A DNA stretch of 64,000 nt from Thermoanaerobaculia bacterium (GCA_050747865.1 JBOGJI010000236.1:11120-75119); one strand, 5' to 3'. Positions 3,223-64,000 are shown, counted from the stretch's first letter. Notes: generated from the sequence alone by a model not told the origin. Program-made: numbers and translations.

Positions 3223-3519
3223 GTGAATATTCGTCCCCTGCATGACCGCGTCGTGATCCGGCGCATCGAGGAGGAGGAGCAGGTGCGCGGGGGGATCATC
3301 ATCCCCGACACCGCCAAGGAGAAGCCTCAGGAGGCCGAGGTCGTGGCCGTCGGGCCCGGCAAGCTCCAGGAGGACGGCAACCGGCAGCCGATGGATGTCA
3401 ATCCCGGCGACCGGGTGCTGATCGGCAAGTACTCCGGCTCGGACATCAAGATCGGCGACCAGGATCTCGTCATCGTGCGCGAAGACGAGATCCTCGGCGT
3501 GCTGAACGGCTCGAAGTAA
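3223..3519 (+). CDS. groES: Co-chaperonin GroES (Hsp10)
   Basis: 98 aa, GTG start. Full-length match to the GroES family (LHDRVVIRR...[20 protein letters not shown]...GDRVL). Confidence 0.95.
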
Positions 3520-5172
<1,653 letters not shown>

Positions 5173-5238: not shown

Positions 5239-7164
5239 TCAGTCGACGTAGCCGAGGGCGCGTAGGCGATCGTCGGTGGACTCGCCAGACTTGTCCGCGG
5301 TTCCGGTGGGCGTGAATCCGAGGTAGCGGACCAGGCAGGGAGCGCCGGGGCCCGGGGCCTCGAGGATCGCCTGAAAGCGTTGGTCCTCCACGCGGGCAGG
5401 GCCGTAGAGGCGCACCTCGGTCTTCGGGATCGGGTCGGCCCTCCGGTTGAGCAAGGCGCCCACCGCCGGTCCGGCGAGCTCGGTGGCGGGACCGTCCGCC
5501 ACGGTCAGGCGGCAGGTGCCGGCGACGGCGGCGCGCAGCTCGTAGGGGCCTGAAGGCAGCTCGACGGAGATCGTAACCGCCGGCGCCCTCGGCGCGGCGG
5601 CCAACCAATACGTATTCCAACCGGTGTTCCGATGCCAGCGCGCGTCGCCCGGCGGCGGCGGCTGGTTGGTGTCGGCCACGGCCGCGGTGGGCTCGACCGC
5701 GAGGTGGCGGACGGCGATGGCAAAGGGCCCCTCGGGGGGGGTGTCGCGCCGCGACCGGGCGTGCCGCAGAAAGGGCTGACGCAGAGTCTCGTACCAGCTC
5801 GCCAGCAACTGGCGCGCGGTCTCCGGCCGCGCCGCTCGCAGATCACGCGTCTCGAGCGGATCCGCGCCGACGTCGAAGAGCTGGGCGTCGGTTCGCGCGG
5901 GACCCGGCAGGGCGTCCGCGGCCAACAACGCCGCCGGCCGGCTGTCTCCTTCCTCCGGTAGCACCAGATGGAACTGCGTCGTGCGCACCCCGTGCGGCGC
6001 ATAGACCGCATCGCCGGCCTGGCCGCCGTCCGTCTCCTCGCCGCCGAGCACAGCGGCCAGATCTCTGCCATCCACCCGCGCTCCCTCGGGCAACGCGACG
6101 TCCAGCAGCGACAGCATCGTCGGCATCACGTCGATAGAAGATGTCAGCCCGTGGTGGACCGTCGGCGCCAACCGCCGCGGGTAGTGCACGATCCACGGCA
6201 CACGCGCCAGCGCGTCGTACCAGACGCCGCCGTGCTCGAAGCGCCCGGGGACCTCAGCCAGGTGCTCGCCGTGGTCCGAGGTCACCACGATCAGCGTGTC
6301 CTCGAGCCAGCCGCGACGCCGCAGGTACCGAACCAGCCGCCCGACCTCGCGATCGGCGTGGCGCAGCCCGCCGTCGTAGAGCGCGTCGAGGTAGCGCCTC
6401 TCCTCGTCCGCGAGCGGGCGGCCGGGATCACGCACGCGTCCCTGCGGAGTGAACGCCTCCTGCGCCCGTTCCACGTCGATATCGCCGCCGAACGCCCGCG
6501 CCTCCGGCCCCCACGGGTGGGGAAAGTGGGTATCCATGTAGTGGAGATAGAGGAAGACGTCGTCGCCCCTGTGCCCATCCAGCCAGGTGATGGCCGCGTC
6601 GGTCACCTGTGCGGCCGTCGGGTAGCCGTAGAAGTTGTCGATCGGCGACTCGTCCCCCAGCCGCCGCAGCTCGTCGAACTCGGCGGCGAACGGCGTGTCC
6701 GGCCGCAGCCAGGCATGGGCGCTCAACGCCGCGGTGCGAAAGCCGGCCGCGGCGAGCGCCCGCGGCAGCGAGACCGCCTCCCGATCCACCTGCTGAAACA
6801 GGTTCCACGGCTCCTCCAGCGGCACGTTGTAGCTGTCCGGAAAGATGGGCGGCGTGAAGTAGCGCGAGTAGAGCAGCTGCGGCAGCGACGCCCGCGTCTC
6901 CGCCGCCAGCGCGAAGTGGTTGCGCGCCACCACCCCCTCCGCCGCCAGCGCGTCCAGCGCCGGCATCGTCTCCCGCCCATACCCATACGCCGACACCCGA
7001 TCCGCCCGCACCGCGTCGAGCATGACCAACACCGCCCGCCGCGGCCGCTCCGCCCCCCCACCGCCACACCCGTAAGCTGCCAGCACCCCAAGCAAGACCA
7101 GCCCCCATGAGCATCTCCGCGCATGACATGGCGAGGTGCCACGGGGCAAGCCGGCACGCCTCAT
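5239..7164 (-). CDS. Sulfatase-like hydrolase/transferase (alkaline-phosphatase superfamily), probable lipoprotein
   Basis: 641 aa. Sulfatase-domain landmarks: N-terminal metal-binding LVMLDAVRADR and C-terminal VVTSDHGEHL. Signal peptide with LAAYGC lipobox-like cysteine. No C/S-x-P-x-R formylglycine motif is evident. Confidence 0.65.
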   Translation of the reverse strand: MRRAGLPRGTSPCHARRCSWGLVLLGVLAAYGCGGGGAERPRRAVLVMLDAVRADRVSAYGYGRETMPALDALAAEGVVARNHFALAAETRASLPQLLYSRYFTPPIFPDSYNVPLEEPWNLFQQVDREAVSLPRALAAAGFRTAALSAHAWLRPDTPFAAEFDELRRLGDESPIDNFYGYPTAAQVTDAAITWLDGHRGDDVFLYLHYMDTHFPHPWGPEARAFGGDIDVERAQEAFTPQGRVRDPGRPLADEERRYLDALYDGGLRHADREVGRLVRYLRRRGWLEDTLIVVTSDHGEHLAEVPGRFEHGGVWYDALARVPWIVHYPRRLAPTVHHGLTSSIDVMPTMLSLLDVALPEGARVDGRDLAAVLGGEETDGGQAGDAVYAPHGVRTTQFHLVLPEEGDSRPAALLAADALPGPARTDAQLFDVGADPLETRDLRAARPETARQLLASWYETLRQPFLRHARSRRDTPPEGPFAIAVRHLAVEPTAAVADTNQPPPPGDARWHRNTGWNTYWLAAAPRAPAVTISVELPSGPYELRAAVAGTCRLTVADGPATELAGPAVGALLNRRADPIPKTEVRLYGPARVEDQRFQAILEAPGPGAPCLVRYLGFTPTGTADKSGESTDDRLRALGYVD

Positions 7165-26272: not shown

Positions 26273-28456
26273 TCACGCCGCCGCCGCCTTGCGCGCGTGG
26301 GCCCGCTTCTTGCCGCCAGTCTTGCTCTCGGCGAACGGATCCCCGTGGATCAGTGTCGTGCCTTCCATGTGAGCCGGCACCTTGACACCGAACAGCTCGA
26401 GCGCCGTCGGGGCGATGTCCATGAGGGACGGATTCTCGACGCTGAGCGGCACGTTCGAGAACAGGACGCCCGGCACGATGCGCGGATCCACGCCGTGGTC
26501 GCCGCTCCACGCCTTGGTGTTGTCCTCGAACACCGGTCCCGACACCATGCCCGAGGCGCAGTCCCAGGAGATGCGGTAGCCGTGGTTGTAGCCGACCACG
26601 AAGTCGGGGCCGTGGGCCAGGTAGGGGCCCTTGTAGAGCTTGGCCGAGTCGAAGACCTCGTTGATGCCGGTCTCGCCGGTCTCGGCGTCGACGAGCCCGG
26701 AGAGCTTGCGGCAGATCTCGTCCTTGAGCTGCTGCGCCTCGCCGCCCGGCTCGACGATGCCCTCCGCCTCCCGCCCCTTGAGGTTCAAGAACATCCCCGT
26801 CAGCCCCACGGCGTAGACCCGCGTGCGCGACCAGTCGACGTCGCGTAGCCACTCGGAGCTGCCGTCGGTGCCCGGCTTCAAGGCCAGATAGCCGTTGTCG
26901 AGCAGCCACTTGTTCAAGTTGATGCCGCGGCGGAAGGAGGTGAAACCGTGATCGGAGAGGACGATCAGCACGTCGCCCTTGCCGAGGCGGCCCATGGCCC
27001 GCCCGACCAGGGCGTCGTTGCGCCGATACAGCTCCTCGATGGCGTCGCGGTGCTCCGCATTTTCAAGGCCGCGGGCGGCCGGGTGCCCGTCCTCGAGATA
27101 GCGCCAGAACATGTGCTGGATGCGGTCGGTGGCGTCGAACACGCACACCAGGCAGCCCTTGCGCAGCCGGTCCCAGGCGCCGAAGAACATCTCCTGCCGC
27201 TCGCGGTCGATGTCCCAGGTCTGCTCCAGGAAGGTCCCGTCGTCGACCACCCGCTCATTGAGCGCCCAGGTGTCCTCGGCCAGCCCGAGGGTGCTGTAGG
27301 GGCCGACGAGCTTGGCCAGGTAGGTGGCGTAGTAGCCGGGATGCGAGATCGGCATGGCGGGCTTTTCGGGATCGAACGACAGCGGCGTCACATACAGCGA
27401 GACGTGCTCGCCCGCCTCGGTGAGCTCGATCCGCGCCAGCCCCTTGACCTGGATGCCCGGCGCCGCCGGAAAGGAGAGCTTGACCCAGGGCGAGAGCTTG
27501 CCCCTCGTCAGCTCGACCCGCTCGCCGTCCGCCTCCAGGGTCCCCGTGCCGGCGGCGTGGTCGACCCGCAGGGTGAACGGCAGCTCCATCTCGGGCGCGC
27601 CGTCGCGGAACAGGTTCTCCGGCCCCTTGAGGGTACCCTGGAAGGTTCCGTTGCCATCGGCGGAGGTCAGCGGCAGGCGGATCCCGCCCTCCTTGAAGTC
27701 ACGTCCGGAGGTGGCGTCCGCGGGCCGGGTGGTGAAGTACTGGAACGTCCCCTGGGTCCCCAGCAGGTCGGGCGCCGCCATCGCCGACAGCTCGGCGCCG
27801 TAGAAGCGGTCGGGCGGAAACGTGATCGGCACCCGCAGCACCGTGGACCAGATGCGCGCCTCCCCGAGCAGGCTCCAGAACGGCTTGGACTTGCGCAGCA
27901 GCCGCAACTCGGGCTTGTGCAGGGGTATGCGCCACTTGCCGAGCTTCAAGAACCGCTTCACCGTGCCGATCTCGGTGGAGGAGAGCAGCGGCAGATAGGT
28001 CCTCAGGTCGCGGTTCAGGAAGTCGAAGATGTTGTGTTTGGCGGGGCTGACGCCGGTGGCGAACGACGACCAGGCGACCGGCGAGATCGAAGGGTAGGTC
28101 GTGGCCAGCCGGTGATAGCAGCCCTCCTCGGCAAGCCTGGCGAAGCTCGGGAGCTTACCCTCCTTCATGAAGCGATCGGTGAGCCGCGGGTCCTGGCCGT
28201 CGAGCCCGAGCACGATGAGCCGCCGGATCTTCGGCTTGGCGCGCCCGCGGTAGCGGAACGCCCGCCACAGCGCGCGGAACGGCCAGAGCAGCAGGGCGAA
28301 GACGGCGATCAGGACGGTGACGAAGACGACCGCGAAGGAGGAGAGCAGGGCGAACCCCGCTCCCGGGCCGATGTACGCAGCCGCGGGCGCCGCGGCACCG
28401 GCCAGCGCCAGCAACGCCATCGCGTTGCGGCGGCCGGATCGAGCGGGGGTAAACAT
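26273..28456 (-). CDS. Alkaline-phosphatase-superfamily enzyme (type I phosphodiesterase/nucleotide pyrophosphatase-like), membrane-anchored paralog
   Basis: 727 aa. N-terminal TM anchor; IVLGLDGQDP ... ISPVAWSSFATG ... LSDHGFTSF. Similar along its whole length to the 24255..26258 product. Confidence 0.65.
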   Translation of the reverse strand: MFTPARSGRRNAMALLALAGAAAPAAAYIGPGAGFALLSSFAVVFVTVLIAVFALLLWPFRALWRAFRYRGRAKPKIRRLIVLGLDGQDPRLTDRFMKEGKLPSFARLAEEGCYHRLATTYPSISPVAWSSFATGVSPAKHNIFDFLNRDLRTYLPLLSSTEIGTVKRFLKLGKWRIPLHKPELRLLRKSKPFWSLLGEARIWSTVLRVPITFPPDRFYGAELSAMAAPDLLGTQGTFQYFTTRPADATSGRDFKEGGIRLPLTSADGNGTFQGTLKGPENLFRDGAPEMELPFTLRVDHAAGTGTLEADGERVELTRGKLSPWVKLSFPAAPGIQVKGLARIELTEAGEHVSLYVTPLSFDPEKPAMPISHPGYYATYLAKLVGPYSTLGLAEDTWALNERVVDDGTFLEQTWDIDRERQEMFFGAWDRLRKGCLVCVFDATDRIQHMFWRYLEDGHPAARGLENAEHRDAIEELYRRNDALVGRAMGRLGKGDVLIVLSDHGFTSFRRGINLNKWLLDNGYLALKPGTDGSSEWLRDVDWSRTRVYAVGLTGMFLNLKGREAEGIVEPGGEAQQLKDEICRKLSGLVDAETGETGINEVFDSAKLYKGPYLAHGPDFVVGYNHGYRISWDCASGMVSGPVFEDNTKAWSGDHGVDPRIVPGVLFSNVPLSVENPSLMDIAPTALELFGVKVPAHMEGTTLIHGDPFAESKTGGKKRAHARKAAAA

Positions 28457-53565: not shown

Positions 53566-55028
53566 CGACCCACCCAGACGGACTTGGTCTCGGTGTAGAA
53601 GGACAGGGCCTCGCGGCCCAGCTCGCGGCCGAAGCCGGACTGCTTGTAGCCGCCGAAGGGAGCCCCCGGGTCGTACCAGTTGTACTGGTTGATCCACACG
53701 GTGCCGGCCTCGAGCAGACGCGCCGCGCGATGGGCCTTGCCGATGTCGCGCGTCCAGACGCCGGCGGCGAGCCCGTAGATGGAGGCGTTGGCCTGGGCGA
53801 TCGCCTCCTCGACGTCGTCGAAGGCGATGGTCACCAGCACCGGCCCGAAGATTTCCTCGCGGGCCACCGTCATGTCGTTGGAGACACCGTCCAGGATCGT
53901 CGGCAACATGAAATGCCCCTTGCCGTCGACCGACGCCGCCTCGCCGCCGACCACCACCTCGGCGCCCTCCTCGCGCCCGGCCGCCACATAGCCGAGCACG
54001 CTCTCCCGCTGGCGCGCCGAGACCAGGGAGCCGAGCCGCGTCTTGGGATCCAGCGGATCGGCGGGCGCCAGGCGGCTCGTCCGCTCGATGAGCTTGTCGA
54101 GCAGCTCGTCGTGCACGCTGCGCTCGACGAACAGGCGGGAGCCAGCGGCGCAGACCTCGCCCTTGCCGTAGAAGATGCCGTTGTAGGCGCCCTTGACCGC
54201 GGCGTCGAGGTCGGCGTCGGCGAAGACGATGTTCGGCGACTTGCCGCCCAGCTCCAGGGTCAGGCGCTTGACCGTCTCGGCGGCGTCGCGCATCACCTGC
54301 TGGCCGACCTGGGTCGAGCCGGTGAACGTCACCTTGGCGACCTGCGGGTGGCGGCAGAGCGCCCCGCCCGCCTCCGACCCCGAGCCGGGCAGCACGTTGA
54401 GCACGCCCGCTGGCAGGCCGGCCTCCACGGCGAGCTCGGCGAACCGCAAGGCGGTCAGCGGCGTGTAGCTCGCCGGCTTGTGGATCACCGTGTTGCCGCA
54501 GGCCAGAGCCGGCGCGATCTTCCACGCCGCCTGGATGAGCGGGAAGTTCCAGGGAGTGATCGCCGCCACCACGCCCATGGGCTCGCGCAGCGTGTAGGCG
54601 AGCTCGAACGGCCCGTCCACGGCCATCGCCTCACCGGTGATCTTGTCCGCCCAGCCGGCGAAGTAGCGCAGGCAGTTGATGACCATCGGCAGGTCGACGT
54701 AGCGCGACTCGAAGATCGGCTTGCCGTTGTCGAGGGTCTCGAGCCGCGCCAGCTCGTCGATCCGCGCCTCGACCGTGTCGGCGATGCGCCACAGCAGCTC
54801 GCCGCGCTGGCGCCCGGAGAGCTTGGCCCAGTCGCCGGTGAGCGCCTCGCGCGCGGCGCTCACCGCGCGGTCGACATCCGCCGCCGAGGCCGCGGCGACC
54901 TCGCACAGCGGCTCCTCGGTCGCCGGGTTCTCGGTGACGAAGCTGCCCCCCGTGGGCTCGACCCACTCGCCGCCGACGAACAGCTTGGGCGGCGGGTAGG
55001 CTGGAGATGCGGCCGTATCCACGCTCAT
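53562..55028 (-). CDS. NAD(P)-dependent aldehyde dehydrogenase
   Basis: ALDH family (FTGSTQVG, ELGGKSP, catalytic C in GEVCAAG). The start is preferred at 55028 (MSVDTAAS), which has an AGGAGA SD. The track ORF begins at 55049. Confidence 0.85.
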   Translation of the reverse strand: MSVDTAASPAYPPPKLFVGGEWVEPTGGSFVTENPATEEPLCEVAAASAADVDRAVSAAREALTGDWAKLSGRQRGELLWRIADTVEARIDELARLETLDNGKPIFESRYVDLPMVINCLRYFAGWADKITGEAMAVDGPFELAYTLREPMGVVAAITPWNFPLIQAAWKIAPALACGNTVIHKPASYTPLTALRFAELAVEAGLPAGVLNVLPGSGSEAGGALCRHPQVAKVTFTGSTQVGQQVMRDAAETVKRLTLELGGKSPNIVFADADLDAAVKGAYNGIFYGKGEVCAAGSRLFVERSVHDELLDKLIERTSRLAPADPLDPKTRLGSLVSARQRESVLGYVAAGREEGAEVVVGGEAASVDGKGHFMLPTILDGVSNDMTVAREEIFGPVLVTIAFDDVEEAIAQANASIYGLAAGVWTRDIGKAHRAARLLEAGTVWINQYNWYDPGAPFGGYKQSGFGRELGREALSFYTETKSVWVGR

Positions 55029-55126
55029 CTTCTGCACACCTCTCCTCATTGTACCGGCCGGCGGGCACCGCGCGGCGAAGCCGCGTGGCCCGTCGGCCGT
55101 CTCTTCGGCCGAGACAAGCTCGGCCG

Positions 55127-55951
55127 CTACGCTCCCTTGAACTCGGGAGCGCGCTTGTCGATGTAGGCCGCCAGCCCTTCCTTGGCGTCGCCGCTGGTGA
55201 ACAGCTGCTGCTGCAGCTCGCGCTCGATGGCGAGCCCGCTCTCGAACGGGACCTCCCAGCCGGACTGCACCGAGCGCTTGATGCGGCCGACCGCCTTGGC
55301 GGCCTTGCCGGGCGGGCAGAACTGCCGGGCGAAAGCCTGGACCTGATCCAGGAAGTCATCGCCGTCGAAGATGCGGTTGACGATCCCCAGCTCCTCGCCG
55401 CGTTCGTACGAGACCAGCTCGCCGCTGACCATCAAGTCGATGGCGCGCGACTTGCCGACGATGCGCGACAGGCGCTGTGTGCCGCCGGTGCCGGGCAGGA
55501 CGCCGAGGTTGATCTCCGGCAGCCCCAGCTTGCCGCTGCCCTTCCTGGCGATGCGCAGGTCGGCGGCCATCGCGATCTCCAGCCCGCCGCCCACGGTGTG
55601 GCCGTTCAGGGCCGCGATCACCAGCTTCGGAGTCTGCTCCAGACGGTTCAGGGTCTCGTTGGCGTGCAGGCAGAAGTAGTACTTGAAGGTCGGATCGGAC
55701 TCCTTGAGCATGGCGATGTTGGCGCCGGCGCAGAAGAACTTCTCCCCGGAGCCGGTGAGCACGATCACGTGGACGTCGTTGTCGAACCGCGCCTCCAGGA
55801 TGGCGGCGTCGAGCTGCCGCATCATCTCGTGGGTGTAGGTGTTGGCGGGCGGGTCGTCGAGGGTCAGCCACGCGACCCCCTCCCGGACTTCGTAGTGCAC
55901 CAGCGTGCGCGGTTCCTGGCTCATATCGGCAGTCGGCTCGGCCATCGTCAC
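55127..55951 (-). CDS. Enoyl-CoA hydratase/isomerase family protein
   Basis: 274 aa. FCAGANI ... GGGLEIAMAADLRIA ... INLGVLPGTGGTQRL. Confidence 0.85.
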   Translation of the reverse strand: MTMAEPTADMSQEPRTLVHYEVREGVAWLTLDDPPANTYTHEMMRQLDAAILEARFDNDVHVIVLTGSGEKFFCAGANIAMLKESDPTFKYYFCLHANETLNRLEQTPKLVIAALNGHTVGGGLEIAMAADLRIARKGSGKLGLPEINLGVLPGTGGTQRLSRIVGKSRAIDLMVSGELVSYERGEELGIVNRIFDGDDFLDQVQAFARQFCPPGKAAKAVGRIKRSVQSGWEVPFESGLAIERELQQQLFTSGDAKEGLAAYIDKRAPEFKGA

Positions 55952-56136
55952 TCCTCGAACAGCGGGTTGAATGTTGGAACTAGGGTTTCAGCAACTGGGC
56001 CCTGAGCAGCCCGGCTTGAGAGCCATTGTGTCATGGCACCGGGCGGTGCGGCAACCGAAGCGGATACCGTCAGCAACGGTTCGCGAGGCGTGATACGGCG
56101 TGTTGAGGGCTTCGATTCCCTGGCGCGGGGCGGATG

Positions 56137-57414
56137 TCACGCCAGGACCTGCACCTCGGGGATGGCGACCACGAACTGGCCTCCCCATTCTTGTACGCCC
56201 GACATCTGCTCGACCACCTCGTCCCTGAGGTTCCAGGGCAGGATCAGGATGTAGTCGGGCCGGGTGTCGAAGATGCGCTCGGGCGGATGGATCGGAATGC
56301 GTGTCCCGGGGAGCAGGTGTCCCTGCTTGTGCGGCGAGATATCGACCGTGTAGTCGAGGGTCTCGACCCCGATTCCGCAATAGTTGAGCAAGGTGTTCCC
56401 TTTCGCCGGAGCGCCATAGCCGACGATGCGTTTACCTTCCCCCTTTGCCTTTGCCAGGAAGCCCAGGAGCTTGCGCTTGGTCGCCCGCACCCGCGCGTCG
56501 AAGGCGCGATAGGTCTCGAGGTCCGCGAGCCCGAACGTCTCCTCGCGCGCCAGCAGCTCGACCACCCTCTCTCCCCCCTGCCCGGGCTCATCGTCCGCTC
56601 CCTCGCCGGCGCGCCGCGCGTAGATGCGCAGCGATCCGCCATGGGTATGTAGCTCCTCGACGTCGAACACTTCCAGCCCGTGATGCGCGAGGACCCGGCG
56701 CACCGTGCCGAAGGAGAAGTACGAATAGTGCTCGTGATAGATGGTGTCGAACTGATTCTCCGCCATCAGCCGCATCAGGTGCGGGAACTCCATCGTCAGC
56801 ACGCCTTGCTCCGCGAGCACGGTGCTCAGGCCGCCGACGAAGTTGTTGAGGTCCGGCACGTGAGCCAGCACATTGTTGCCGATCAGGAGATCCGCCCGCC
56901 ACCCCTCGGCCGCCAGCTCCCGTGCTATGGCCTCGTCAAAGAAGCGCACTCGCGTCGGGACTCCCGCCTCCTCCGCCGCCCGCGCGACGTTCGCCGCAGG
57001 CTCGATACCGAGCACGGGGACGCCGCGATCGCGGAAGGAGCGCAGCAGGTAGCCGTCGTTGCTCGCCACCTCCACCACCCGTGACGTGGCGTCGTAGCGG
57101 AAGCGCTCGATCATCGAATCGACGAAGTTCTGCGCATGCTCGAGCCACGTGCGCGAATACGAGGAGAAATACGCGTATTCGCTGAACAGCTCCTGTGGCT
57201 TCAAGACCTCAAGGATTTGTACCAGGTAGCAGGAGCCGCAGACATAGGCGACCAGCGGGTAGAAGACATCGGGCAAGTGCGCCTTCTCGGGTGGCACGTA
57301 GGCATTCGCCGGCGGCGACAGCCCCAGGTCGGCGAACGTCTCGGTCAACTCGGCGCAGCAGAAGCGGCAAAACTTCTCGATCACAACCACAAAGTTACAA
57401 CTACGACCAAGCAA
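56137..57414 (-). CDS. Zinc-ribbon C-methyltransferase (Methyltransf_13/14 family, NDP-hexose C-methyltransferase-like)
   Basis: N-terminal CxxC...CxxC (CRFCCAEL ... CGSCYLVQ), a class I SAM-MT core (VVEVASNDG) and the C-methyltransferase C-terminal domain. The probable true start is GTG at 57384 (M-IEKFCRFC) rather than the track TTG at 57414. Confidence 0.65.
   Translation of the reverse strand: MLGRSCNFVVVIEKFCRFCCAELTETFADLGLSPPANAYVPPEKAHLPDVFYPLVAYVCGSCYLVQILEVLKPQELFSEYAYFSSYSRTWLEHAQNFVDSMIERFRYDATSRVVEVASNDGYLLRSFRDRGVPVLGIEPAANVARAAEEAGVPTRVRFFDEAIARELAAEGWRADLLIGNNVLAHVPDLNNFVGGLSTVLAEQGVLTMEFPHLMRLMAENQFDTIYHEHYSYFSFGTVRRVLAHHGLEVFDVEELHTHGGSLRIYARRAGEGADDEPGQGGERVVELLAREETFGLADLETYRAFDARVRATKRKLLGFLAKAKGEGKRIVGYGAPAKGNTLLNYCGIGVETLDYTVDISPHKQGHLLPGTRIPIHPPERIFDTRPDYILILPWNLRDEVVEQMSGVQEWGGQFVVAIPEVQVLA
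57383..57403 (-). promoter_or_regulatory. Direct-repeat motif copy 1 (minus strand TAGTTGT-N7-TGGTTGT; start codon GTG formed by the last heptad)
   Basis: Plus strand ACAACCAcaaagttACAACTA. See the findings section. Confidence 0.4.
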
Positions 57415-57464
57415 GGGTCAAGAGCCGATGGACGCGAACGCGTGCCGCGGTCACGGTCTCGCGC

Positions 57465-59282
57465 TCAGCCGCCGTCAGCCGGGTGCCGACCCATCAGAAC
57501 GGGGTGCTGTCGGCGCTCCCTTCGGGCAGCACCTCTTCGGGCACCTTTTCGGGGATCGATCGGCTCCGGGAACGTCAGGGCCAGCCGAAGGTTCTCGAAG
57601 AAACGGTGACGATTGAACACCTTCCGCTCGATGACCTCGATGCTGGCCAGGTTGGCGCTCACCCAAGGCGGCGCGATGCCCGACTCGACGGCCCGCCGGA
57701 ACGACCCGATGCGCGGACGGTTGTCGGCCGCGAGCTCGATGTGACCGATGGCCCGCGCCATCGGCACGAGGTCCCACTTGTGTCCAGGCCGGTCATGCGG
57801 CACCTTGGCGCGCGCCAGGAACGGCTCCGTCAGGCCGAGACTGTGTATGGCCCGTTCCTGTGCTCGGCCGTAGAGCCCCGCGCACCAGAAATCGACCACG
57901 AGCCCGCGATGCGGCGGCTGCGCCGCCGACACGGCGGCCTCGCGGTACGACGTCTTCCTATCGACCTTGTCGCAGCCGCCCCACGGCGGACACGCGAGGT
58001 CCGGGTGATGGCGATGAGCCGCGGCATCGTTGATCAAGACCGGCCTCCGGCTGGGCCCCTTGTCGGGTCTCACGACCTGGATCGGGGACCCGAGAGTGCC
58101 GAGAATCGGATGGCGATCGAGCTGACGCGGGTAGCGCGTGAAGACGGCGCCCATCACCAACAGCGCGGCGACGACTGGTGCGACACGCGGCACGCGCCAG
58201 CGGATCCGGGCCACGAGGTGCTCCGGCAGCCCGGCCGTAGCCGCCACGGCGAGGCAAACCGGGAACGCGAGATAGCGATAGTGCCGAGAATCCCCACCGA
58301 TCTTGACGACGAAGGCCGTGACCGAGGCCGCGAGACAAATCAGCACGACACGCTCGGGTAGGTGCAAGGGCGGCCTCGCGAAACCGCGCCGTGCGGCGGC
58401 GCGATCGCTCCACGCGAGCAGCCCGAAGCCGGTCGCGGCGGCGCCGAGCAGCCAGTGCAGGCCGTAGGCGTTGGCCGTGTCGAGGAGATAGACCACACCC
58501 TGCCGGAGCAAGTTGACGTTCTTCAGATAGAAGGTGTTAGGCAGCAGCTCGGCGTAGTACCAGATGCGCAAGGCGATCCAGGTGCCCGTCGTGAGCAGCG
58601 TCGAGAGCAGGAGGGCCCAGGGCACCCGCCGGGTGCGCCAGCCGCACCAGGCCACGAGCAGCAGCCATGGCACCGCCAGCTCGGGCCGAACCAGCGGACC
58701 CAGGCCGGCTGCCAGCTGCGGCCAGCGATCCTGAGGGCGAAACACGACGAGTGCGAACACCGCCGCCATCACTTGCACGAGGGGAGTCTCGACGCCCGAG
58801 GTGAAGTAGCAAAGCACGGCGTAGTTGGTAGCCAGAAGCAGCAGCGGCAAGGAGAACGGCGCGACGCCCTGCGGCGCCACATGGCGGTTGACGCGCACGA
58901 GCAGCGCCCAGAACGCCACGCATGACAGCACGCCCAGCACGCGGACGGCGAGCCACCACCCAGAACCGACCGCCCTCGCCACGAGGAGCGTCAGCATCCA
59001 GAGAGGGCTGCTGAACCCCTCGACGTATTCGCCAGCGTTGTAGACCAGGCCGCGGCCCGCATAGAGCGCGTTGTCGACGAAGCGAAAGTAGACGAACGAG
59101 TCGTCGATCAGCCAGGAGTACTGAACGGTCAGGACGACGAGCACGAAGAGCGCCAGCCACTCCGCCGCCGTCCGGCGCAGGCGAGGCGAGCTCGGGGCCA
59201 GGTCGGGGCGGCCCCCGTCAATCATCGAAGCGTGCGAGCGGGTTGTTGCACGGTGTGATGGACGGGGCGTAGAAGCCGACAT
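57465..59282 (-). CDS. Polytopic membrane protein, possibly GT-C-like, with a C-terminal soluble domain and conserved tail
   Basis: 605 aa. ~10 TM helices in the first ~330 aa. First-loop acidic motif LIDDSFVYFRF. The C-terminus ends RRQHPVLMGRHPADGG. The start may be the internal MIDGG. Confidence 0.35.
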   Translation of the reverse strand: MSASTPRPSHRATTRSHASMIDGGRPDLAPSSPRLRRTAAEWLALFVLVVLTVQYSWLIDDSFVYFRFVDNALYAGRGLVYNAGEYVEGFSSPLWMLTLLVARAVGSGWWLAVRVLGVLSCVAFWALLVRVNRHVAPQGVAPFSLPLLLLATNYAVLCYFTSGVETPLVQVMAAVFALVVFRPQDRWPQLAAGLGPLVRPELAVPWLLLVAWCGWRTRRVPWALLLSTLLTTGTWIALRIWYYAELLPNTFYLKNVNLLRQGVVYLLDTANAYGLHWLLGAAATGFGLLAWSDRAAARRGFARPPLHLPERVVLICLAASVTAFVVKIGGDSRHYRYLAFPVCLAVAATAGLPEHLVARIRWRVPRVAPVVAALLVMGAVFTRYPRQLDRHPILGTLGSPIQVVRPDKGPSRRPVLINDAAAHRHHPDLACPPWGGCDKVDRKTSYREAAVSAAQPPHRGLVVDFWCAGLYGRAQERAIHSLGLTEPFLARAKVPHDRPGHKWDLVPMARAIGHIELAADNRPRIGSFRRAVESGIAPPWVSANLASIEVIERKVFNRHRFFENLRLALTFPEPIDPRKGARRGAARRERRQHPVLMGRHPADGG

Positions 59283-59583
59283 ACGAAATGAGGCGGGATT
59301 CGTCGGCGTCGAACCTGAAGAAGTCGGTCGAGAGCAGAAACTGTGCCCGAACGCGATCGGGCCACCGGTCGCGTCCGGGCAACCGCCCGACGTAGCGCCG
59401 ATAGTCCGTCTCGAACGCGTCCAGCGCGGCAGGATCGAGGTTCAGATATGCGAATGCGGCTTGCCTCGCCTCGTCGCTTTCCGTTGGTGACGCTCGCCGG
59501 CGCCTCCATAGCGACACGCCGAGAAGCGGCACCCCGACGGCCACGCCGAGCAGCTGCAGGAGACGGCGGCGAGTGAGCGCCAT
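59218..59583 (-). CDS. Small Tat-signal protein (candidate hitchhiker/small subunit of the adjacent GMC flavoprotein)
   Basis: 121 aa. Twin-arginine signal MALTRRRLLQLLGVAVGVPLLG. The ATG lies 1 nt after the GMC stop (translational coupling). Confidence 0.4.
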   Translation of the reverse strand: MALTRRRLLQLLGVAVGVPLLGVSLWRRRRASPTESDEARQAAFAYLNLDPAALDAFETDYRRYVGRLPGRDRWPDRVRAQFLLSTDFFRFDADESRLISYVGFYAPSITPCNNPLARFDD

Positions 59584-59584
59584 G

Positions 59585-61042
59585 TCAGGCCGCGCCTCCG
59601 GACCTCAACAGCTTGTCGGCCGCTCGCAGAGACAGCGCCGCGATCGTCAGCGTGGGATTGGCCGGCGCCGCGGTCGGAAACGTGCTGCTGCCCAGGACGA
59701 GGAGATTGCGAACGCGGTGGTGCACGAGGCCGGCGTCGACGACGCCGTCCGCGGCAGTGCGTCCCATCGGGGTGGTGCACTGGATGTGGGCTTCGGTCGC
59801 GCCCCGATCGCGCCAGATCTCGAACCGCTCCACCGGCAGAGCGGCGAGCACGCGCGTCAGATTGGCTGCGAGCGCGGCGATGCCGCGCTCGGCATACGCG
59901 GAGTGGCGCTTGAACTCCACTGCCGGCTGCTCCGCGTCGGCATCGTCAACGGTGACGCGATTGTCGGCCTGCGGCAGATCCTCGTAGATGAACTGCAAGT
60001 GCAGCTGCTCGCGCCATCTGCCCCGTTCGTGCCGGAGCTCCGGGACGTTCCAGGTCTCCATCATGGCGGCCGCGCGATCGCGTCGATGATCGCCGCCGTA
60101 CAGCATGTAGCCAAGGCCCGTGATGCTGGTGCTGCCCTGGAAATTGTCGACTCCGTCGAGCATGACGTCGACCGCGACCGAGACCTGTTCGACGAGGCCG
60201 CGTCCGACCTTGTCGTCGGTCAGGTCCGATCGCAGGAGGAGGTAGGGGTTGAAGATCGCGTTCGCCCCAAGGCCCGCGAGCTCCGTGGGGACGAAGTGGT
60301 CGGCGCCGCCTCGCCGGTAGCGGATCCCCGTCAGCGTGCTGCCGGCGACTTCGACGGCTTGGACATGTGCGCCCGTGAGCAGCGTGACACGCGGATCCCG
60401 ATAGAGATGCGTCAGCTCATTGAGAATGGTGAACTTCGAGTCGATGGGGCACTTATGGCAAATCCCGTTCGCACAGCAACGCGGACGGCCCGAAGGCAGT
60501 GCGCGGCTCGGACGCGCCGCCGGCTGCTGAAAGAAGCGATCGGGGAAGTGCCGCTTGAACAAGCGATCGGGATCGGTGAAACGGTGCGGCGGCAGCGGGT
60601 AGGGACGGCTGCGCGGGTATGGCGAGCCGTCGGCGGGACCCGAGACCGCCATGATCTCCTCGGCGTCGCAGTAGTACTCCTCCAGATCCTCGTACACCAC
60701 GGGCCAGTCGCGACCGACTCCGTATAGGGAATGAAGGCGGAAGTCCTCGGGCAGCATACGCGGTGTGCACGCCCACCAGCAGTTGGATCCTCCGCCGAAG
60801 GCCAGACGAAACGTCCACTTCTTCCACGGGCTGCGGTTCCGGAAGCTCCTGTCGGCCGCTCTTCTGAGTCCACGGTCGTGCTCAGTGTGCCATCGATGGG
60901 AGTACATCTCGCCGCGCTCGAGCACGAGCACGCGGGTCCGGCGGCCGGCCCGTTCGAGATACCGGTGCAGGAAGAACGTCGCGGCGAACCCGGTGCCCAC
61001 GAGTACGAGATCGTAGGCGCCTTCTAGCATGGATACAACCAT
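59585..61042 (-). CDS. GMC-family FAD-dependent oxidoreductase
   Basis: 485 aa. N-terminal Rossmann motif DLVLVGTGFAA. GMC C-terminal domain (HIQCTTPMG, LLVLGSSTFPT, NPTLT). Confidence 0.8.
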   Translation of the reverse strand: MVVSMLEGAYDLVLVGTGFAATFFLHRYLERAGRRTRVLVLERGEMYSHRWHTEHDRGLRRAADRSFRNRSPWKKWTFRLAFGGGSNCWWACTPRMLPEDFRLHSLYGVGRDWPVVYEDLEEYYCDAEEIMAVSGPADGSPYPRSRPYPLPPHRFTDPDRLFKRHFPDRFFQQPAARPSRALPSGRPRCCANGICHKCPIDSKFTILNELTHLYRDPRVTLLTGAHVQAVEVAGSTLTGIRYRRGGADHFVPTELAGLGANAIFNPYLLLRSDLTDDKVGRGLVEQVSVAVDVMLDGVDNFQGSTSITGLGYMLYGGDHRRDRAAAMMETWNVPELRHERGRWREQLHLQFIYEDLPQADNRVTVDDADAEQPAVEFKRHSAYAERGIAALAANLTRVLAALPVERFEIWRDRGATEAHIQCTTPMGRTAADGVVDAGLVHHRVRNLLVLGSSTFPTAAPANPTLTIAALSLRAADKLLRSGGAA

Positions 61043-61055
61043 ATTGTTACAACCA
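61035..61055 (-). promoter_or_regulatory. Direct-repeat motif copy 2 (minus strand TGGTTGT-N7-TGGTTGT, 4 nt before the ATG)
   Basis: Plus strand ACAACCAtattgttACAACCA. See the findings section. Confidence 0.4.
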
Positions 61056-61118
61056 AAAGCTTACAAAGAAAGCGCGAAACCGGGACGGGGCGAGCGCCCC
61101 GCGCTTGCGGTGTCGCGC

Positions 61119-61730
61119 TCAGCCGCCGTCGCGGGAGTGCCGACCCATCAAAACGGCGTGCCGTCGCCGCTCGCTGTCGAGGGCTCGGCCTCGATCGCTG
61201 ACGAACGCGAGGATCTCGCGCATGTCGAGCACTAGAGAGAGCGCAGGCGTCTCCGGGCGCGTCAGAATGTGGGCCAGGTCTTTCTGGTTGCGGATGCAAA
61301 TTGCGCGCTCGTGGACTACGACGTAGCGCGCCGTCTCGAGTTCCCTGTCGACCTGCTTGAGCGTGTCCAGCAAGGAGCGCAGCGTCGCCACCGACACGCC
61401 CTGCTCCCGTAGGGAGCGGGCGATCCGCAGGCGGAGGACGTCGGCGAACCCGTACCGGCGCTCCCGCCCCCTGCCCCTGCCGGCGCCCTTGAAGACGCTC
61501 GGCCGCAAGAACCCCGTACGGCCCCAGGAATCCACCGTGAAAAAGGGAACGTCGCTGAGCCACGCCGCTTCCCGCGAGGTGAATCCCTCGCCGCCGTCTT
61601 CTCCGCCTGACCTCGCCGGCGGGGTCGCTTCTTCGGCTGTCGGTCCGGTTCGCCTCATCGCTCCCCGAGACGAGATGTTCGCGGTGGCATCTGCACCATC
61701 GTATCGCCAGCATACAGGAGCCCGCCACAC
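61119..61730 (-). CDS. MerR-like HTH transcriptional regulator with conserved C-terminal tail
   Basis: MerR-type HTH (FTSREAAWLSDVPFFTVDSWGRTGFLRPS...RRYGFADVLRLRIARSLREQGVSVATLRSLL). Likely start at MRRTGP. Ends RRRHAVLMGRHSRDGG. Confidence 0.5.
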   Translation of the reverse strand: MWRAPVCWRYDGADATANISSRGAMRRTGPTAEEATPPARSGGEDGGEGFTSREAAWLSDVPFFTVDSWGRTGFLRPSVFKGAGRGRGRERRYGFADVLRLRIARSLREQGVSVATLRSLLDTLKQVDRELETARYVVVHERAICIRNQKDLAHILTRPETPALSLVLDMREILAFVSDRGRALDSERRRHAVLMGRHSRDGG

Positions 61731-61742
61731 GTCCGGCCGGCT

Positions 61743-63878
61743 TCACGGTTGGATCTCCAGCCAGACTGGCGAGGTCCACGCGCGCACCGTGCGGCCACGG
61801 GTCGGCTCCGACAGTTGTGCACGCAGGTAGTAGATGACCTCGCCCGAGCTGCTGTCGAGCCGATCGACGAACCGATCGTCGAGGAGGCGGTCGATCTCCC
61901 GCCACTCCTTGGCCACTTGCCATCCCGCCTCGGGATCTGAGAAGCGCATCAGCTGAGCGAGCTCGATCTGTCCGGCGGCTGCCAGCAGGACGCGGCCGTC
62001 GGGGTCGCTGCCACATCTGCCGGTACCCCCCATGGGGGTTCCCGAAACCTCGAATTCGAGATAGATCCGCCGGCCGGTCGTGGCGTAGGTCCGACGAGCC
62101 ACGATGGCGTCGAAGATGGCCTCTCGTTCCAACCTGGGGGCCAGCACGGCGGTCAACCCGGCGTGAGGCTGGCCCGGCTGGGCCGTGTGGTTGTCGCTGC
62201 CGGCCACCGTGCCGACACGGTGGCCGAGGGCCCAGGCGTCGCGGGCGTAATGCGGTCCGGGCTGGGGATGTGACGGCAGGTAGCCGACCTTGTTGTATGC
62301 CAGGGCATCTTGGGGGTCGTCGTATTCGGAGCTGCCGTGCAGCGAATAGATCTCGAGGTTGGGCCGCAGCTCGATCGCGGTCGGTCCGGGCGGGCGCCAG
62401 TCTACCCACGGACCGTGCCGGCGTCGTTCGTAGGGAGGTGGCGGGCCCAATCCCGCGTGCCGCACGATCCTCGGCCAGCTCGCCGCGGTGGTGCGACCGA
62501 GGTGGTGGGGGATGGTGAAGGCCGTACCCGGCTCGAGCCGTTTCCACAGATTGGCCACCGACCCGAGGCGTCGTGGGTTCCACGGCACGCCCTCTTCCGA
62601 GCGGAAGTAGACGCAGTGGTGCCCGTCGTGGAACGTGCACTCATAGCCCAGGAGGGTGACGAAGCGTCCGGGGTCGTAGAAGCGCCGCACGCGCCGCCGG
62701 ATCGTCTGCCACTCCTGGGGTGTGATGCCGTCTTTCTCGCGGCGCCAGTTCACGTCGTCCTCGGAGTGCTCCGTCGGTGCCAGGAAGTCCAGGCGGGTGA
62801 TGTCCCGGGCATATCGGAAGTCGTCGTGCCCGACCGCGTCCTTGCTGATCGCGGAGTGGGAGTGCAGGTCCCCCCAGAAGATCCGTTCGGCCGGCGGTTT
62901 CGCATACACTCGGATCGGGTCCCCAGCGATCCGCCGCTCCGCTTCGCCGCCTTCCGCGGCGAGACGCAAGACGGCGACCGGCCAGTGGAAGCCGGTCCGC
63001 CGCGGCACCCATCGGAAACGCACGGCTCCGCGCTCCAGGGCTCCGGCGCTGGGCGGGAGCGCGGACGCGGCGAGACCGGCGGCGACGACTTTGCCGCGGG
63101 CGCGAGCCAGGTTGGCGAAGCGGTCGAACACGGTGAGCTGCAGCTCGACCGCTTCTCCGACGACCACCTGACTGGGTCCGAACAGGGCGAAATCCGTGGC
63201 CGCGGCCGCGTCGACCCGGTAGCGAGCAGGGCGTGGGAGCAGCCGGTACGCACCCTCGCCGCTGCGGTCCACCGCCGCCCGGATGGAGTCCTCGCCCGCG
63301 AGGTAGGGGGCCGTCGTGTTGTGCAGCGTGAGCCGGACTTCGTCGCCGGCGCGCAGATGGCCGCCCTCCACCGTCACCGCGGCGATGTGCGGATACCGCG
63401 TCGTCTTACCGTCGAAGTTGCGCTGCTGCAGCTTCACGTCGAGCTCGACGTCGGCACGCGAGGCGGCCGCCGACACGAAGTGGGCGGCGCCCGGTTGTAC
63501 CTGCTGGAACGGCTTCGGCCACGGGTAGAGCTCCGCGAACCAGGCCTTAGGGAGGTCGAAAAGCAAGCCGCCGGCCGTGGCGATGCCTCCCGCGCCGACC
63601 GTGAAGTGCACCGTGTAGGTCCCCACCTGGGCAGCGGTCATGTGGTCGGGCTCGACGCGGATCGCCCCTGTAGCGGCTCCGATGACCAGGCGCGAAGGGG
63701 TCGGCTCGAAGGCCTCGTCGAGTCCTTCCGCCAGCACCACGAGCTCCCCCTGCCGACCGCGATCGTCGGAGTGCCTGGCAGCGAGACCTCGCTGCACAGG
63801 CCGCCAGACCAGCAGGGTGATCGTCAAGAGGCCGGCCAGGACCATCGCGGCCCGCAGGCTGCGAACAAAGCGCGACAC
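61743..63878 (-). CDS. DUF3604 / PHP-like metal-dependent hydrolase domain protein with N-terminal signal-anchor and beta-rich domain
   Basis: 711 aa, GTG start. N-terminal TM MVLAGLLTITLLVW. The C-terminal ~400 aa carry the PHP/DUF3604 metal motif FWGDLHSHSAISKDA and further His/Asp clusters (PTEHSEDD, IPHHLG, GSDNH). Confidence 0.6.
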   Translation of the reverse strand: MSRFVRSLRAAMVLAGLLTITLLVWRPVQRGLAARHSDDRGRQGELVVLAEGLDEAFEPTPSRLVIGAATGAIRVEPDHMTAAQVGTYTVHFTVGAGGIATAGGLLFDLPKAWFAELYPWPKPFQQVQPGAAHFVSAAASRADVELDVKLQQRNFDGKTTRYPHIAAVTVEGGHLRAGDEVRLTLHNTTAPYLAGEDSIRAAVDRSGEGAYRLLPRPARYRVDAAAATDFALFGPSQVVVGEAVELQLTVFDRFANLARARGKVVAAGLAASALPPSAGALERGAVRFRWVPRRTGFHWPVAVLRLAAEGGEAERRIAGDPIRVYAKPPAERIFWGDLHSHSAISKDAVGHDDFRYARDITRLDFLAPTEHSEDDVNWRREKDGITPQEWQTIRRRVRRFYDPGRFVTLLGYECTFHDGHHCVYFRSEEGVPWNPRRLGSVANLWKRLEPGTAFTIPHHLGRTTAASWPRIVRHAGLGPPPPYERRRHGPWVDWRPPGPTAIELRPNLEIYSLHGSSEYDDPQDALAYNKVGYLPSHPQPGPHYARDAWALGHRVGTVAGSDNHTAQPGQPHAGLTAVLAPRLEREAIFDAIVARRTYATTGRRIYLEFEVSGTPMGGTGRCGSDPDGRVLLAAAGQIELAQLMRFSDPEAGWQVAKEWREIDRLLDDRFVDRLDSSSGEVIYYLRAQLSEPTRGRTVRAWTSPVWLEIQP

Positions 63879-63897
63879 AACCAGATGTTTACAACCA
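63877..63897 (-). promoter_or_regulatory. Direct-repeat motif copy 3 (minus strand TGGTTGT-N7-TGGTTGT; start codon GTG formed by the last heptad)
   Basis: Plus strand ACAACCAgatgtttACAACCA. See the findings section. Confidence 0.4.
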
Positions 63898-64000
63898 GCG
63901 GCGCGGGTGAGTCAAGCAACGGGAGCCTTCGCACCGGGTATAGTGTCCCAGGGGTCCGGACAATGGGTGACGAAGCTGCGCCACGGCGCGAGACGAGAGG

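Follow-up and report, generated by a model that had tools for sequence, protein, structure and literature searches.

A candidate direct-repeat operator of a CvkR-like MerR-type regulator in an acidobacterial gene cluster

In canonical MerR operators, a palindrome is centred in the 19-20-bp spacer between the -35 and -10 boxes. Leaderless promoters of Actinobacteria and Deinococcus-Thermus, for which Zheng et al. 2011 is reportedly a source, carry a TANNNT hexamer 6-8 nt upstream of the start codon. The subject here is a 64-kb stretch of DNA of ~70% GC from a soil acidobacterium (JBOGJI010000236.1:11120-75119; hereafter the window), in which head-to-tail copies of a TGGTTGT heptad stand before three minus-strand transcription units, one of which includes the gene of a MerR-type regulator. 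The closest described systems are CvkR and BldC. CvkR (Alr3614) of Anabaena PCC 7120 is a MerR-type repressor of type V-K CRISPR-associated transposon (CAST) systems (PDB 7XN2; PMC9938897). It forms a symmetric homodimer via beta strands and binds a compact inverted repeat, AnnACATnATGTnnT; its site at PtnsB overlaps the -10 box and the transcription start site, translation of cvkR and its target cas12k proceeds from leaderless mRNAs, and autoregulation is unsupported (PMC9938897). BldC of Streptomyces, a MerR-like protein of 68 aa that consists of a winged helix-turn-helix (wHTH) only, binds cooperatively to variable numbers of head-to-tail direct repeats whose 9-bp units (AATTnnnnC) are contiguous and AT-rich, and no other published MerR-like regulator provides a precedent for direct repeats (PMC5859096).

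Analysis of the window and of related loci makes it probable that the arrays are the operator of the CvkR-like regulator encoded among them, and that the three transcription units form one autoregulated regulon that grew by duplication of a promoter/operator cassette. A sequence-only reading of this DNA had described a 14-nt TGGTTGT-N7-TGGTTGT repeat at three gene starts, and the minus-strand sequences that it quoted are exact: TAGTTGTaactttgTGGTTGTG (57403-57382), TGGTTGTaacaataTGGTTGTatccATG (61055-61028), and TGGTTGTaaacatcTGGTTGTG (63897-63876). The repeat is real and far beyond chance. Allowing up to 2 mismatches, the pattern has 4 matches in the window versus 0.06 expected from 100 dinucleotide-preserving shuffles, none of which reaches 4. 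All four are on the minus strand within 6.5 kb (57383-63897), directly before the DUF3604, GMC-oxidoreductase, and C-methyltransferase genes; the fourth is a third heptad of site 2 (TCTTTGT, 61069-61063) in the same 14-nt register. Exact TGGTTGT occurs 8 times in the 64 kb, and five of these copies lie inside the three sites. The conserved unit is 9 nt long, TGGTTGTAA (T-G-G-T-T-G-T-A-A core), rather than the 7 nt recognized earlier, and positions 10-14 are almost uninformative in a matrix of units from other genomes.

Each array is read on the minus strand. Site 1 (57383-57403) comprises unit A, TAGTTGTAACTTTG, and unit B, TGGTTGTG, and overlaps the methyltransferase GTG at 57384. Site 2 (61035-61069) has three units at a period of 14 (TCTTTGTAAGCTTT, TGGTTGTAACAATA, and TGGTTGTATCC) and is followed by the ATG at 61030; an alternative ATG, at 61042, falls within the array. 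Site 3 (63877-63897) comprises unit A, TGGTTGTAAACATC (heptad 63897-63891), and unit B, again TGGTTGTG (heptad 63883-63877). The earlier description of the element as a direct repeat and not a palindrome holds, as no inverted repeat of at least 8 nt is present in the seven array regions examined. The same lack of inverted repeats, together with the misfit of GTTGTAA to the GTTRRRY core (RYYYAAC ... GTTRRRY), led to the rejection of an integron attC site or mobile-cassette junction, a reading taken up since the sites mark off blocks of genes. A hidden palindrome within each unit (TGGTT-GT-AACCA in L042 and L046, two of the loci from other genomes considered below) was also rejected as a general feature, given the nearly uninformative positions 10-14. 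Separately, it was observed that the units at L042 743-754 and L046 ~2620-2631 read TGGTTGTAACCA, a perfect 5+2+5 palindrome, and that TAGTTGTAACTT, at window site 1, is altered in both halves in a matching way. Since the family does not conserve the right half, these palindromic units may be due to chance, or may be left over from an ancestral inverted-repeat operator.

Homologues of the regulator (48-67% identity) were fetched from other metagenome-assembled genomes (MAGs) by protein similarity alone, with the motif ignored, and a metagenome scan with the regulator alignment gave 6 loci. In 10 of 12 lineages, 2-4 TGGTTGTA(A/G) units, mostly with a 14-bp period, either lie next to the regulator gene or head its operon. 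For instance, loci L032-36 (67% identity) carry TTGACTCGCTCAGCGCTT-TGGTTGTAAACATG-TGGTTGTACAATG-TGGTTGTAACGCC in a divergent region, 38-73 nt from the regulator start, and the L032 array points into an operon encoding a membrane protein, a GMC oxidoreductase, and a small subunit, which is the module of the window in another gene order. Loci L037, L043, L044, and L045 (48-50% identity) have 3-4 units with a period of 14 (e.g. AGGTTGTAGAAGTT-TGGTTGTAAGAGCT-TGCTTGTAAAGCGA) at the head of a sulfatase-regulator operon, and by gene order these loci mirror the array-hydrolase-regulator layout of the window. Similarly, three units with a period of 14 occupy the divergent region upstream of the regulator in L046 and L047/48, while L040, L041, and L042 have 2-3 dispersed units, spaced 23-38 nt apart and 20-200 nt away from the regulator gene. 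As to gene content, the first gene of the L032 operon was considered as a DUF3604 orthologue and rejected, being related to the membrane protein instead. The membrane proteins of the L032 module (around 3305-5063) and the window module (57465-61030) share only a short N-terminal motif (DD..., GLVYN.GE.VEG, 45% over 42 aa), and L032 carries a second GMC/small-subunit pair nearby.

The association is also apparent in the statistics. With the heptad pattern defined from the window alone, the non-redundant regulator loci (65 kb) contain 23 exact copies of TGGTTGT, or 0.35/kb, versus 0.092/kb in 489 kb of control loci (Poisson P ~1e-7, a conservative value since the control loci are less GC-rich). 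Nearly all of these heptads (21/23) belong to the arrays or clusters listed in the preceding paragraph, next to the regulator gene or at its operon head, and no same-strand TGGTTGT pairs within 40 nt were found in the 489 kb of controls. The density of GGTTGTAA is 0.27/kb in the regulator loci versus 0.010/kb in the controls. Additionally, a weight matrix made from 26 external units only, with no window sites, places its top two matches in the 64 kb at 61055 (site 2 unit B, 21.3 bits) and 63897 (site 3 unit A, 20.2 bits); the third-ranked match, 13.4 bits at 26583, is inside a long coding open reading frame (ORF).

The outcome differs for the GMC gene. No heptads are present upstream of the GMC orthologues L001-L027 (GTDB, 40-66% identity) or L029-31 (metagenomes, 75-78% identity), and the latter three instead have a CTAGAATAG box (a TAGAAT-type -10) and a longer leader, with no regulator gene in the sequence fetched. 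The motif thus follows the MerR-like gene and not the GMC gene. The comparison of upstream regions that the sequence-only reading had called for is negative beside GMC orthologues and positive beside regulator homologues. Its choice of the MerR-like protein as candidate binder gains support from the flanking repeats with the same 14-bp period elsewhere and from the recovery of window sites by a matrix of foreign sites. Similarly, the proposal that the shared element ties the three units into one regulon now has independent comparative support, with the caveat that site 1 is a duplicated copy of the site 2 region (see below).

The arrays might instead be bound by another factor, such as a response regulator that recognizes direct repeats, with the MerR-like gene as a conserved target. 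OmpR/PhoB-type regulators typically use direct repeats, which for MerR proteins are atypical (PMC5859096), and the loci were chosen via the regulator gene, so that the co-occurrence is conditioned on its presence and cannot separate binder from target. However, the MerR-like gene is the only gene common to all array-bearing loci, the other neighbours varying between DUF3604, sulfatase, ALGX/GDSL, GMC operons, and unknowns, and no response-regulator gene was seen beside the arrays. The 14-bp period also differs from the 10-11-bp period of OmpR/PhoB boxes. A different binder is considered unlikely.

The proposed binder is a 179-aa protein encoded at 61119-61658 on the minus strand. It matches Pfam MerR_1 with an E value of 1.8e-9 (38 bits versus a cut-off of 21.6), and in the family alignment (members of 154-183 aa) the wHTH is well conserved, with a basic GRGRGRGR wing, and is followed by a C-terminal domain of ~70 aa, itself conserved and modelled with confidence. 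At 50% identity, the family numbers 569 clusters at E<=1e-10, and the close subfamily 8 at E<=1e-30. The AlphaFold 2 model (mean predicted local distance difference test, pLDDT, 81; predicted template modelling score, pTM, 0.73) has wHTH helices with pLDDT >90 and, after alpha4, strands at 112-115, 119-122, and 142-145 and helices at 125-133 and 146-177, the last being a long terminal helix. The long antiparallel coiled-coil dimer helix (alpha5) of canonical MerR proteins is absent from this model. In a Foldseek search of PDB, the best and only strong match is CvkR (7XN2; E 7e-6, 153 aligned columns, template modelling scores 0.54/0.63, full length), and 7xn2_A is likewise the best match in a profile search of PDB sequences (E 6e-4), whereas canonical MerR structures align over the wHTH only, or with a root-mean-square deviation of 12-17 A. 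BldC was not among the PDB matches of either the sequence-profile or the Foldseek search, and no specific sequence relation to it was found. On the model, the regulator is an atypical MerR-type protein with a CvkR-like fold, composed of a wHTH, a beta-strand domain, and a C-terminal helix.

Start codons and promoters were considered with the help of L028 (NCBI GCA_975374965.1), a second strain of the same species. As had been noticed, the GTG codons at 57384 and 63878 are each formed by the last two heptad bases plus a G. The proposed methyltransferase start at GTG 57384 is also the one chosen by the independent L028 gene call, and it places the zinc-binding domain at residue 6. The L028 calls start the GMC gene at ATG 61030 and move the DUF3604 start 11 codons downstream, to ATG 63845. 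GTG 63878 is the most upstream possible start of the DUF3604 ORF, and starting at ATG 63845 drops VSRFVRSLRAA, the arginine-rich n-region of an apparent DUF3604 signal anchor. GTG 63878 is the more natural start, and the gene caller probably skipped it for want of a Shine-Dalgarno (SD) sequence. There is no room for starts much further downstream, because the methyltransferase zinc-binding domain and the GMC Rossmann strand begin at about residue 6.

All three array-linked genes have a TAnnnN hexamer at a distance of exactly 7 nt from the start codon, on its upstream side, and a putative core promoter can be assigned to each on the minus strand. For the DUF3604-regulator operon (63886-63915), this would consist of TTGACT (63915-63910), an 18-nt spacer, and TAAACA (63891-63886), 7 nt from GTG 63878; for the GMC operon (61038-61066), TTGTAA (61066-61061), a 17-nt spacer, and TATGGT (61043-61038), 7 nt from ATG 61030; and for the methyltransferase gene (57392-57421), TTGACC (57421-57416), an 18-nt spacer, and TAACTT (57397-57392), 7 nt from GTG 57384. 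Sites 1 and 3 and L032 thus share the order TTGACY, 18 nt, TAACTT or TAAACA, 7 nt, GTG, with L032 having the site 3-type TTGACTC...TGGTTGTAAACAT arrangement. If transcription at site 2 starts at the position equivalent to that of sites 1 and 3, the leader is 6 nt. A generic sigma-70 promoter/terminator scan reported no promoters at its threshold. Elsewhere in these acidobacterial loci, the usual -10 boxes are seemingly G/TG-TAGAAT, TAGGAT, TATGAT, or TATAGT, followed by leaders of 20-60 nt with an SD; such boxes are seen at L029 ~125-137, L030 ~193-205, L031 ~365-377, L049 ~1283-1291, and L038 ~6466-6474. The divergent ThiS gene beside site 3 similarly has TATAGT ~20 nt before its ATG (window ~63938-63943, plus strand).

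That the heptads are themselves core promoter elements, with TTGTAA as the -35 or -10 box of a leaderless-type promoter, or else an alternative-sigma box, is improbable. TTGTAA does resemble TTGACA, the distance from heptad to start codon is fixed in the window, and at site 2 the arrangement TTGTAA-N17-TATGGT-N7-ATG can be built wholly from the repeat. However, site 2 on the one hand and sites 1 and 3 on the other place the promoter in different registers with respect to the heptads, sites 1, 3, and L032 have a separate upstream TTGACY -35 box, and both copy number (2-4) and spacing (13, 14, 23, 33-38) vary between genomes. Additionally, a 14-bp period cannot put two heptads at -35 and -10, and ordinary promoters in these genomes show TAGAAT, TAGGAT, or TATAGT.

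The sequence-only reading had further proposed that there is no room for an SD and that the transcripts may be leaderless. The first part stands, as an SD (GGAG or GAGG within 20 nt) precedes 0 of 3 array-linked starts versus 8 of 14 other called genes, a statistically weak contrast; it is plain before ClpX, ClpP, ECH, Aldedh, the 121-aa gene, Lon, GATase, and the regulator gene. The second part, taken as leaderless or near-leaderless mRNAs, fits both the sequence and the CvkR precedent, and the chance of leaderless starts is put at somewhat better than even. Abutment of the repeat on start codons, confirmed in the window, does not extend to the motif in general. In L037 and L043-45, the array is upstream of a -10-like TGTAGAT or TATAGAT, ~85-95 nt before an SD-preceded called start, and abutment is therefore characteristic of this species rather than of the motif. 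These same loci bear on whether the repeat could act in the mRNA, as an element for SD-independent translation initiation or a protein-binding RNA element at the 5' end: at ~85 nt from the start, upstream of TGTAGAT, the array is probably untranscribed. Relative to the adjacent regulator gene, the orientation of the array in L040 and L041 is antisense, and a scan of 54000-64000 against Rfam at E<=1 found nothing relevant and no known RNA element. A role in the mRNA is therefore judged very unlikely, even though the repeat abuts start codons in place of an SD, is AU-rich in a genome of 70% GC, and without exception points in the sense direction of a downstream gene.

Sites 1 and 2 have a common history that the earlier reading missed. 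An 82-nt direct repeat, 80% identical, is found at 57440-57521 and 61094-61175 (both minus strand), and each copy spans the last 17 codons and the stop of one of two unrelated ORFs, both of which end in ...VLMGRHxxDGG. The copy at 61094-61175 combines the regulator gene's 3' end with the spacer that precedes site 2, while that at 57440-57521 consists of the last 17 regulator codons and the spacer, joined in frame onto the membrane-protein ORF at its end. Within the regulator family this tail is ancestral: P0122, a homologue with 67% identity, terminates in ...SERRRHGRLVGRRSGVE, aligned with ...SERRRHAVLMGRHSRDGG. Since the tail is genuine in the regulator, the regulator is the source of the copy. 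The membrane-protein tail was also compared with L030, and only the N-terminal half of the protein aligns. The 82-nt repeat was considered as an RNA or repetitive extragenic palindromic (REP) element, and this was rejected because it is the 3' coding end of the regulator, with a tail conserved in P0122.

The two arrays are at the 3' end of a longer, ~140-nt duplicated segment, and sequence comparison indicates that site 1 arose by duplication of the regulator gene 3' end, the spacer, and the site 2 promoter/array; by this event the methyltransferase gene would have joined the regulon. Because both are embedded in the duplication, sites 1 and 2 are not independent occurrences. This raises the possibility that the similarity is merely the by-product of a locally copied promoter cassette, without shared regulation, for which the ~140-nt duplication, including 82 nt at 80% identity, is the main argument. 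However, the 36 nt between the 82-nt block and the array have diverged between the two copies while the heptads were kept. Site 3 shares only the array and the TTGACY box with sites 1 and 2, and has a different upstream gene, ThiS. Moreover, the same array is present in unrelated flanking DNA in at least 8 other lineages. Duplication without regulation is therefore given very little probability.

Overall, the preferred model is that TGGTTGTAA units, placed head to tail every 14 bp, are the operator of the regulator encoded at 61119-61658. The 2-3-unit arrays would overlap the -10 box and the transcription/translation start of the DUF3604-regulator, GMC-small subunit-membrane protein, and C-methyltransferase promoters, and several molecules of the regulator would sit next to one another on the DNA, where most probably they would obstruct RNA polymerase. 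The cluster would then be an autoregulated, repressed regulon, presumably released by some signal, whose mRNAs are probably leaderless or have leaders of <=6 nt. An array over the -10 and +1 positions, as in the window, fits repressor geometry. At the sulfatase-type loci, the array could cover the -35 region and act as a repressor or an activator. The chance of repression is put at somewhat better than even. A more specific proposal, that the CvkR-like subfamily lines up cooperatively on 14-bp-spaced TGGTTGTAA direct repeats over leaderless promoters, as asymmetric dimers or with one dimer per unit, is possible but tentative.

Several observations weigh against this model or parts of it. No heptads were found in L038/39 and L049-51, two regulator lineages, in the DNA flanking the gene as fetched, and the co-occurrence elsewhere is subject to the conditioning on the regulator gene described above. 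CvkR is a symmetric homodimer on an inverted repeat, which does not readily account for the reading of direct repeats by such a dimer, and a 14-bp period is not a helical repeat. With regard to the promoters, the SD contrast (3/3 array-linked starts without SD versus 6/14 other genes) is statistically weak, TAAACA and TAACAA are poor -10 hexamers in which the final T is missing, and the array geometry in other genomes fits an activator as well as a repressor.

The gene families of the window were assigned by Pfam and NCBIfam annotation, which bears out the gene list given earlier. All genes of the cluster are on the minus strand. The DUF3604 gene, for a CehA-McbA-type metallohydrolase, occupies 61743-63878 (or starts at ATG 63845 according to the L028 call). 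The GMC/small-subunit/membrane-protein module (57465-61030), a three-gene module also found behind the array in L032, consists of the GMC oxidoreductase gene (59585-61030), the gene of a 121-aa small subunit with a twin-arginine (Tat) signal (59218-59583), and that of a 586-aa membrane protein (57465-59225). It is followed by the C-methyltransferase gene (Methyltransf_13 / _23 / _14) at 56137-57384. The nearest GMC homologues in reference genomes are from Acidobacteriota/Vicinamibacterales MAGs, at 63-66% identity.

L028 differs from the window at 13 of 12,948 positions and runs beyond the window end, where it can be seen that site 3 is within a divergent ThiS/DUF3604 intergenic region of only ~85 nt. 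This region holds five of the 13 differences, just upstream of the array, and two of them directly adjoin the first heptad; there are 0 substitutions inside the site 3 heptads, which by itself is not significant (~P = 0.2). Twelve of the 13 differences fall in three clusters (63898-63950, 60030-60077, and 58488-58539) of 3-5 substitutions, each over ~50 nt, which suggests short recombination tracts or a mixed-strain consensus and not evenly spread mutation. Past the window, at L028 ~6564-6610 upstream of the trigger-factor gene tig, ggggttcgagtcccccc resembles a tRNA T-arm and 3' end.

Vicinamibacteria-type Acidobacteriota are abundant soil bacteria known mostly from metagenomes, and to our knowledge almost nothing has been described of their transcription factors, operators, or promoter architecture. 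The present locus offers a concrete candidate regulator-operator pair, consisting of a 179-aa protein and sites of 21-35 bp. If the binding is true, direct-repeat recognition in the MerR superfamily extends beyond BldC to a full-length, CvkR-like architecture; on the more specific proposal above, it would have a second, independent origin there. The locus would also show, in a natural setting, how a regulon can grow when a 140-nt promoter/operator cassette is duplicated, and on the same proposal a compact repressor/leaderless-promoter unit could be copied before new genes, as for the methyltransferase. Additionally, the annotation of start codons is affected if starts in an SD-using genome are leaderless, as seems likely; the DUF3604 start, for one, was called 11 codons downstream.

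In comparison to known systems, the three array-linked genes resemble those with leaderless promoters in Actinobacteria and Deinococcus-Thermus in having TAnnnN 7 nt before the GTG or ATG and no SD. In two of the hexamers, however, the conserved final T is missing, and most other genes of this acidobacterial host do have an SD. With canonical MerR activators (MerR, CueR, SoxR, and BmrR), the regulator shares the MerR_1 domain and a candidate operator within the core promoter; it differs in that its model has no coiled-coil helix, the operator has no palindrome, the inferred spacer is 17-18 bp, and the array is over -10/+1 and not centred in the spacer. BldC has a MerR-type wHTH in common with it and fits on the DNA side, with 2-4 direct units (the binding mode here being read from the DNA alone), whereas the present family has 155-183 aa, a folded C-terminal domain, and units 14 bp apart. 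Sequence identity to CvkR is only 17%, and in contrast to the inverted repeat of CvkR the candidate operator consists of the 9-nt TGGTTGTAA in tandem direct repeats, with a 14-bp period and no palindrome. Unlike in the CvkR system, the array here heads the operon that contains the regulator gene, the host is an acidobacterium, and there is no CRISPR or transposon context, the neighbours being DUF3604, GMC oxidoreductases, sulfatase, GDSL/ALGX, and methyltransferase. Nevertheless, the regulator is predicted to share with CvkR an N-terminal wHTH with a basic G-K/R-G-R wing, and three beta strands and a terminal helix that replace the MerR coiled coil.

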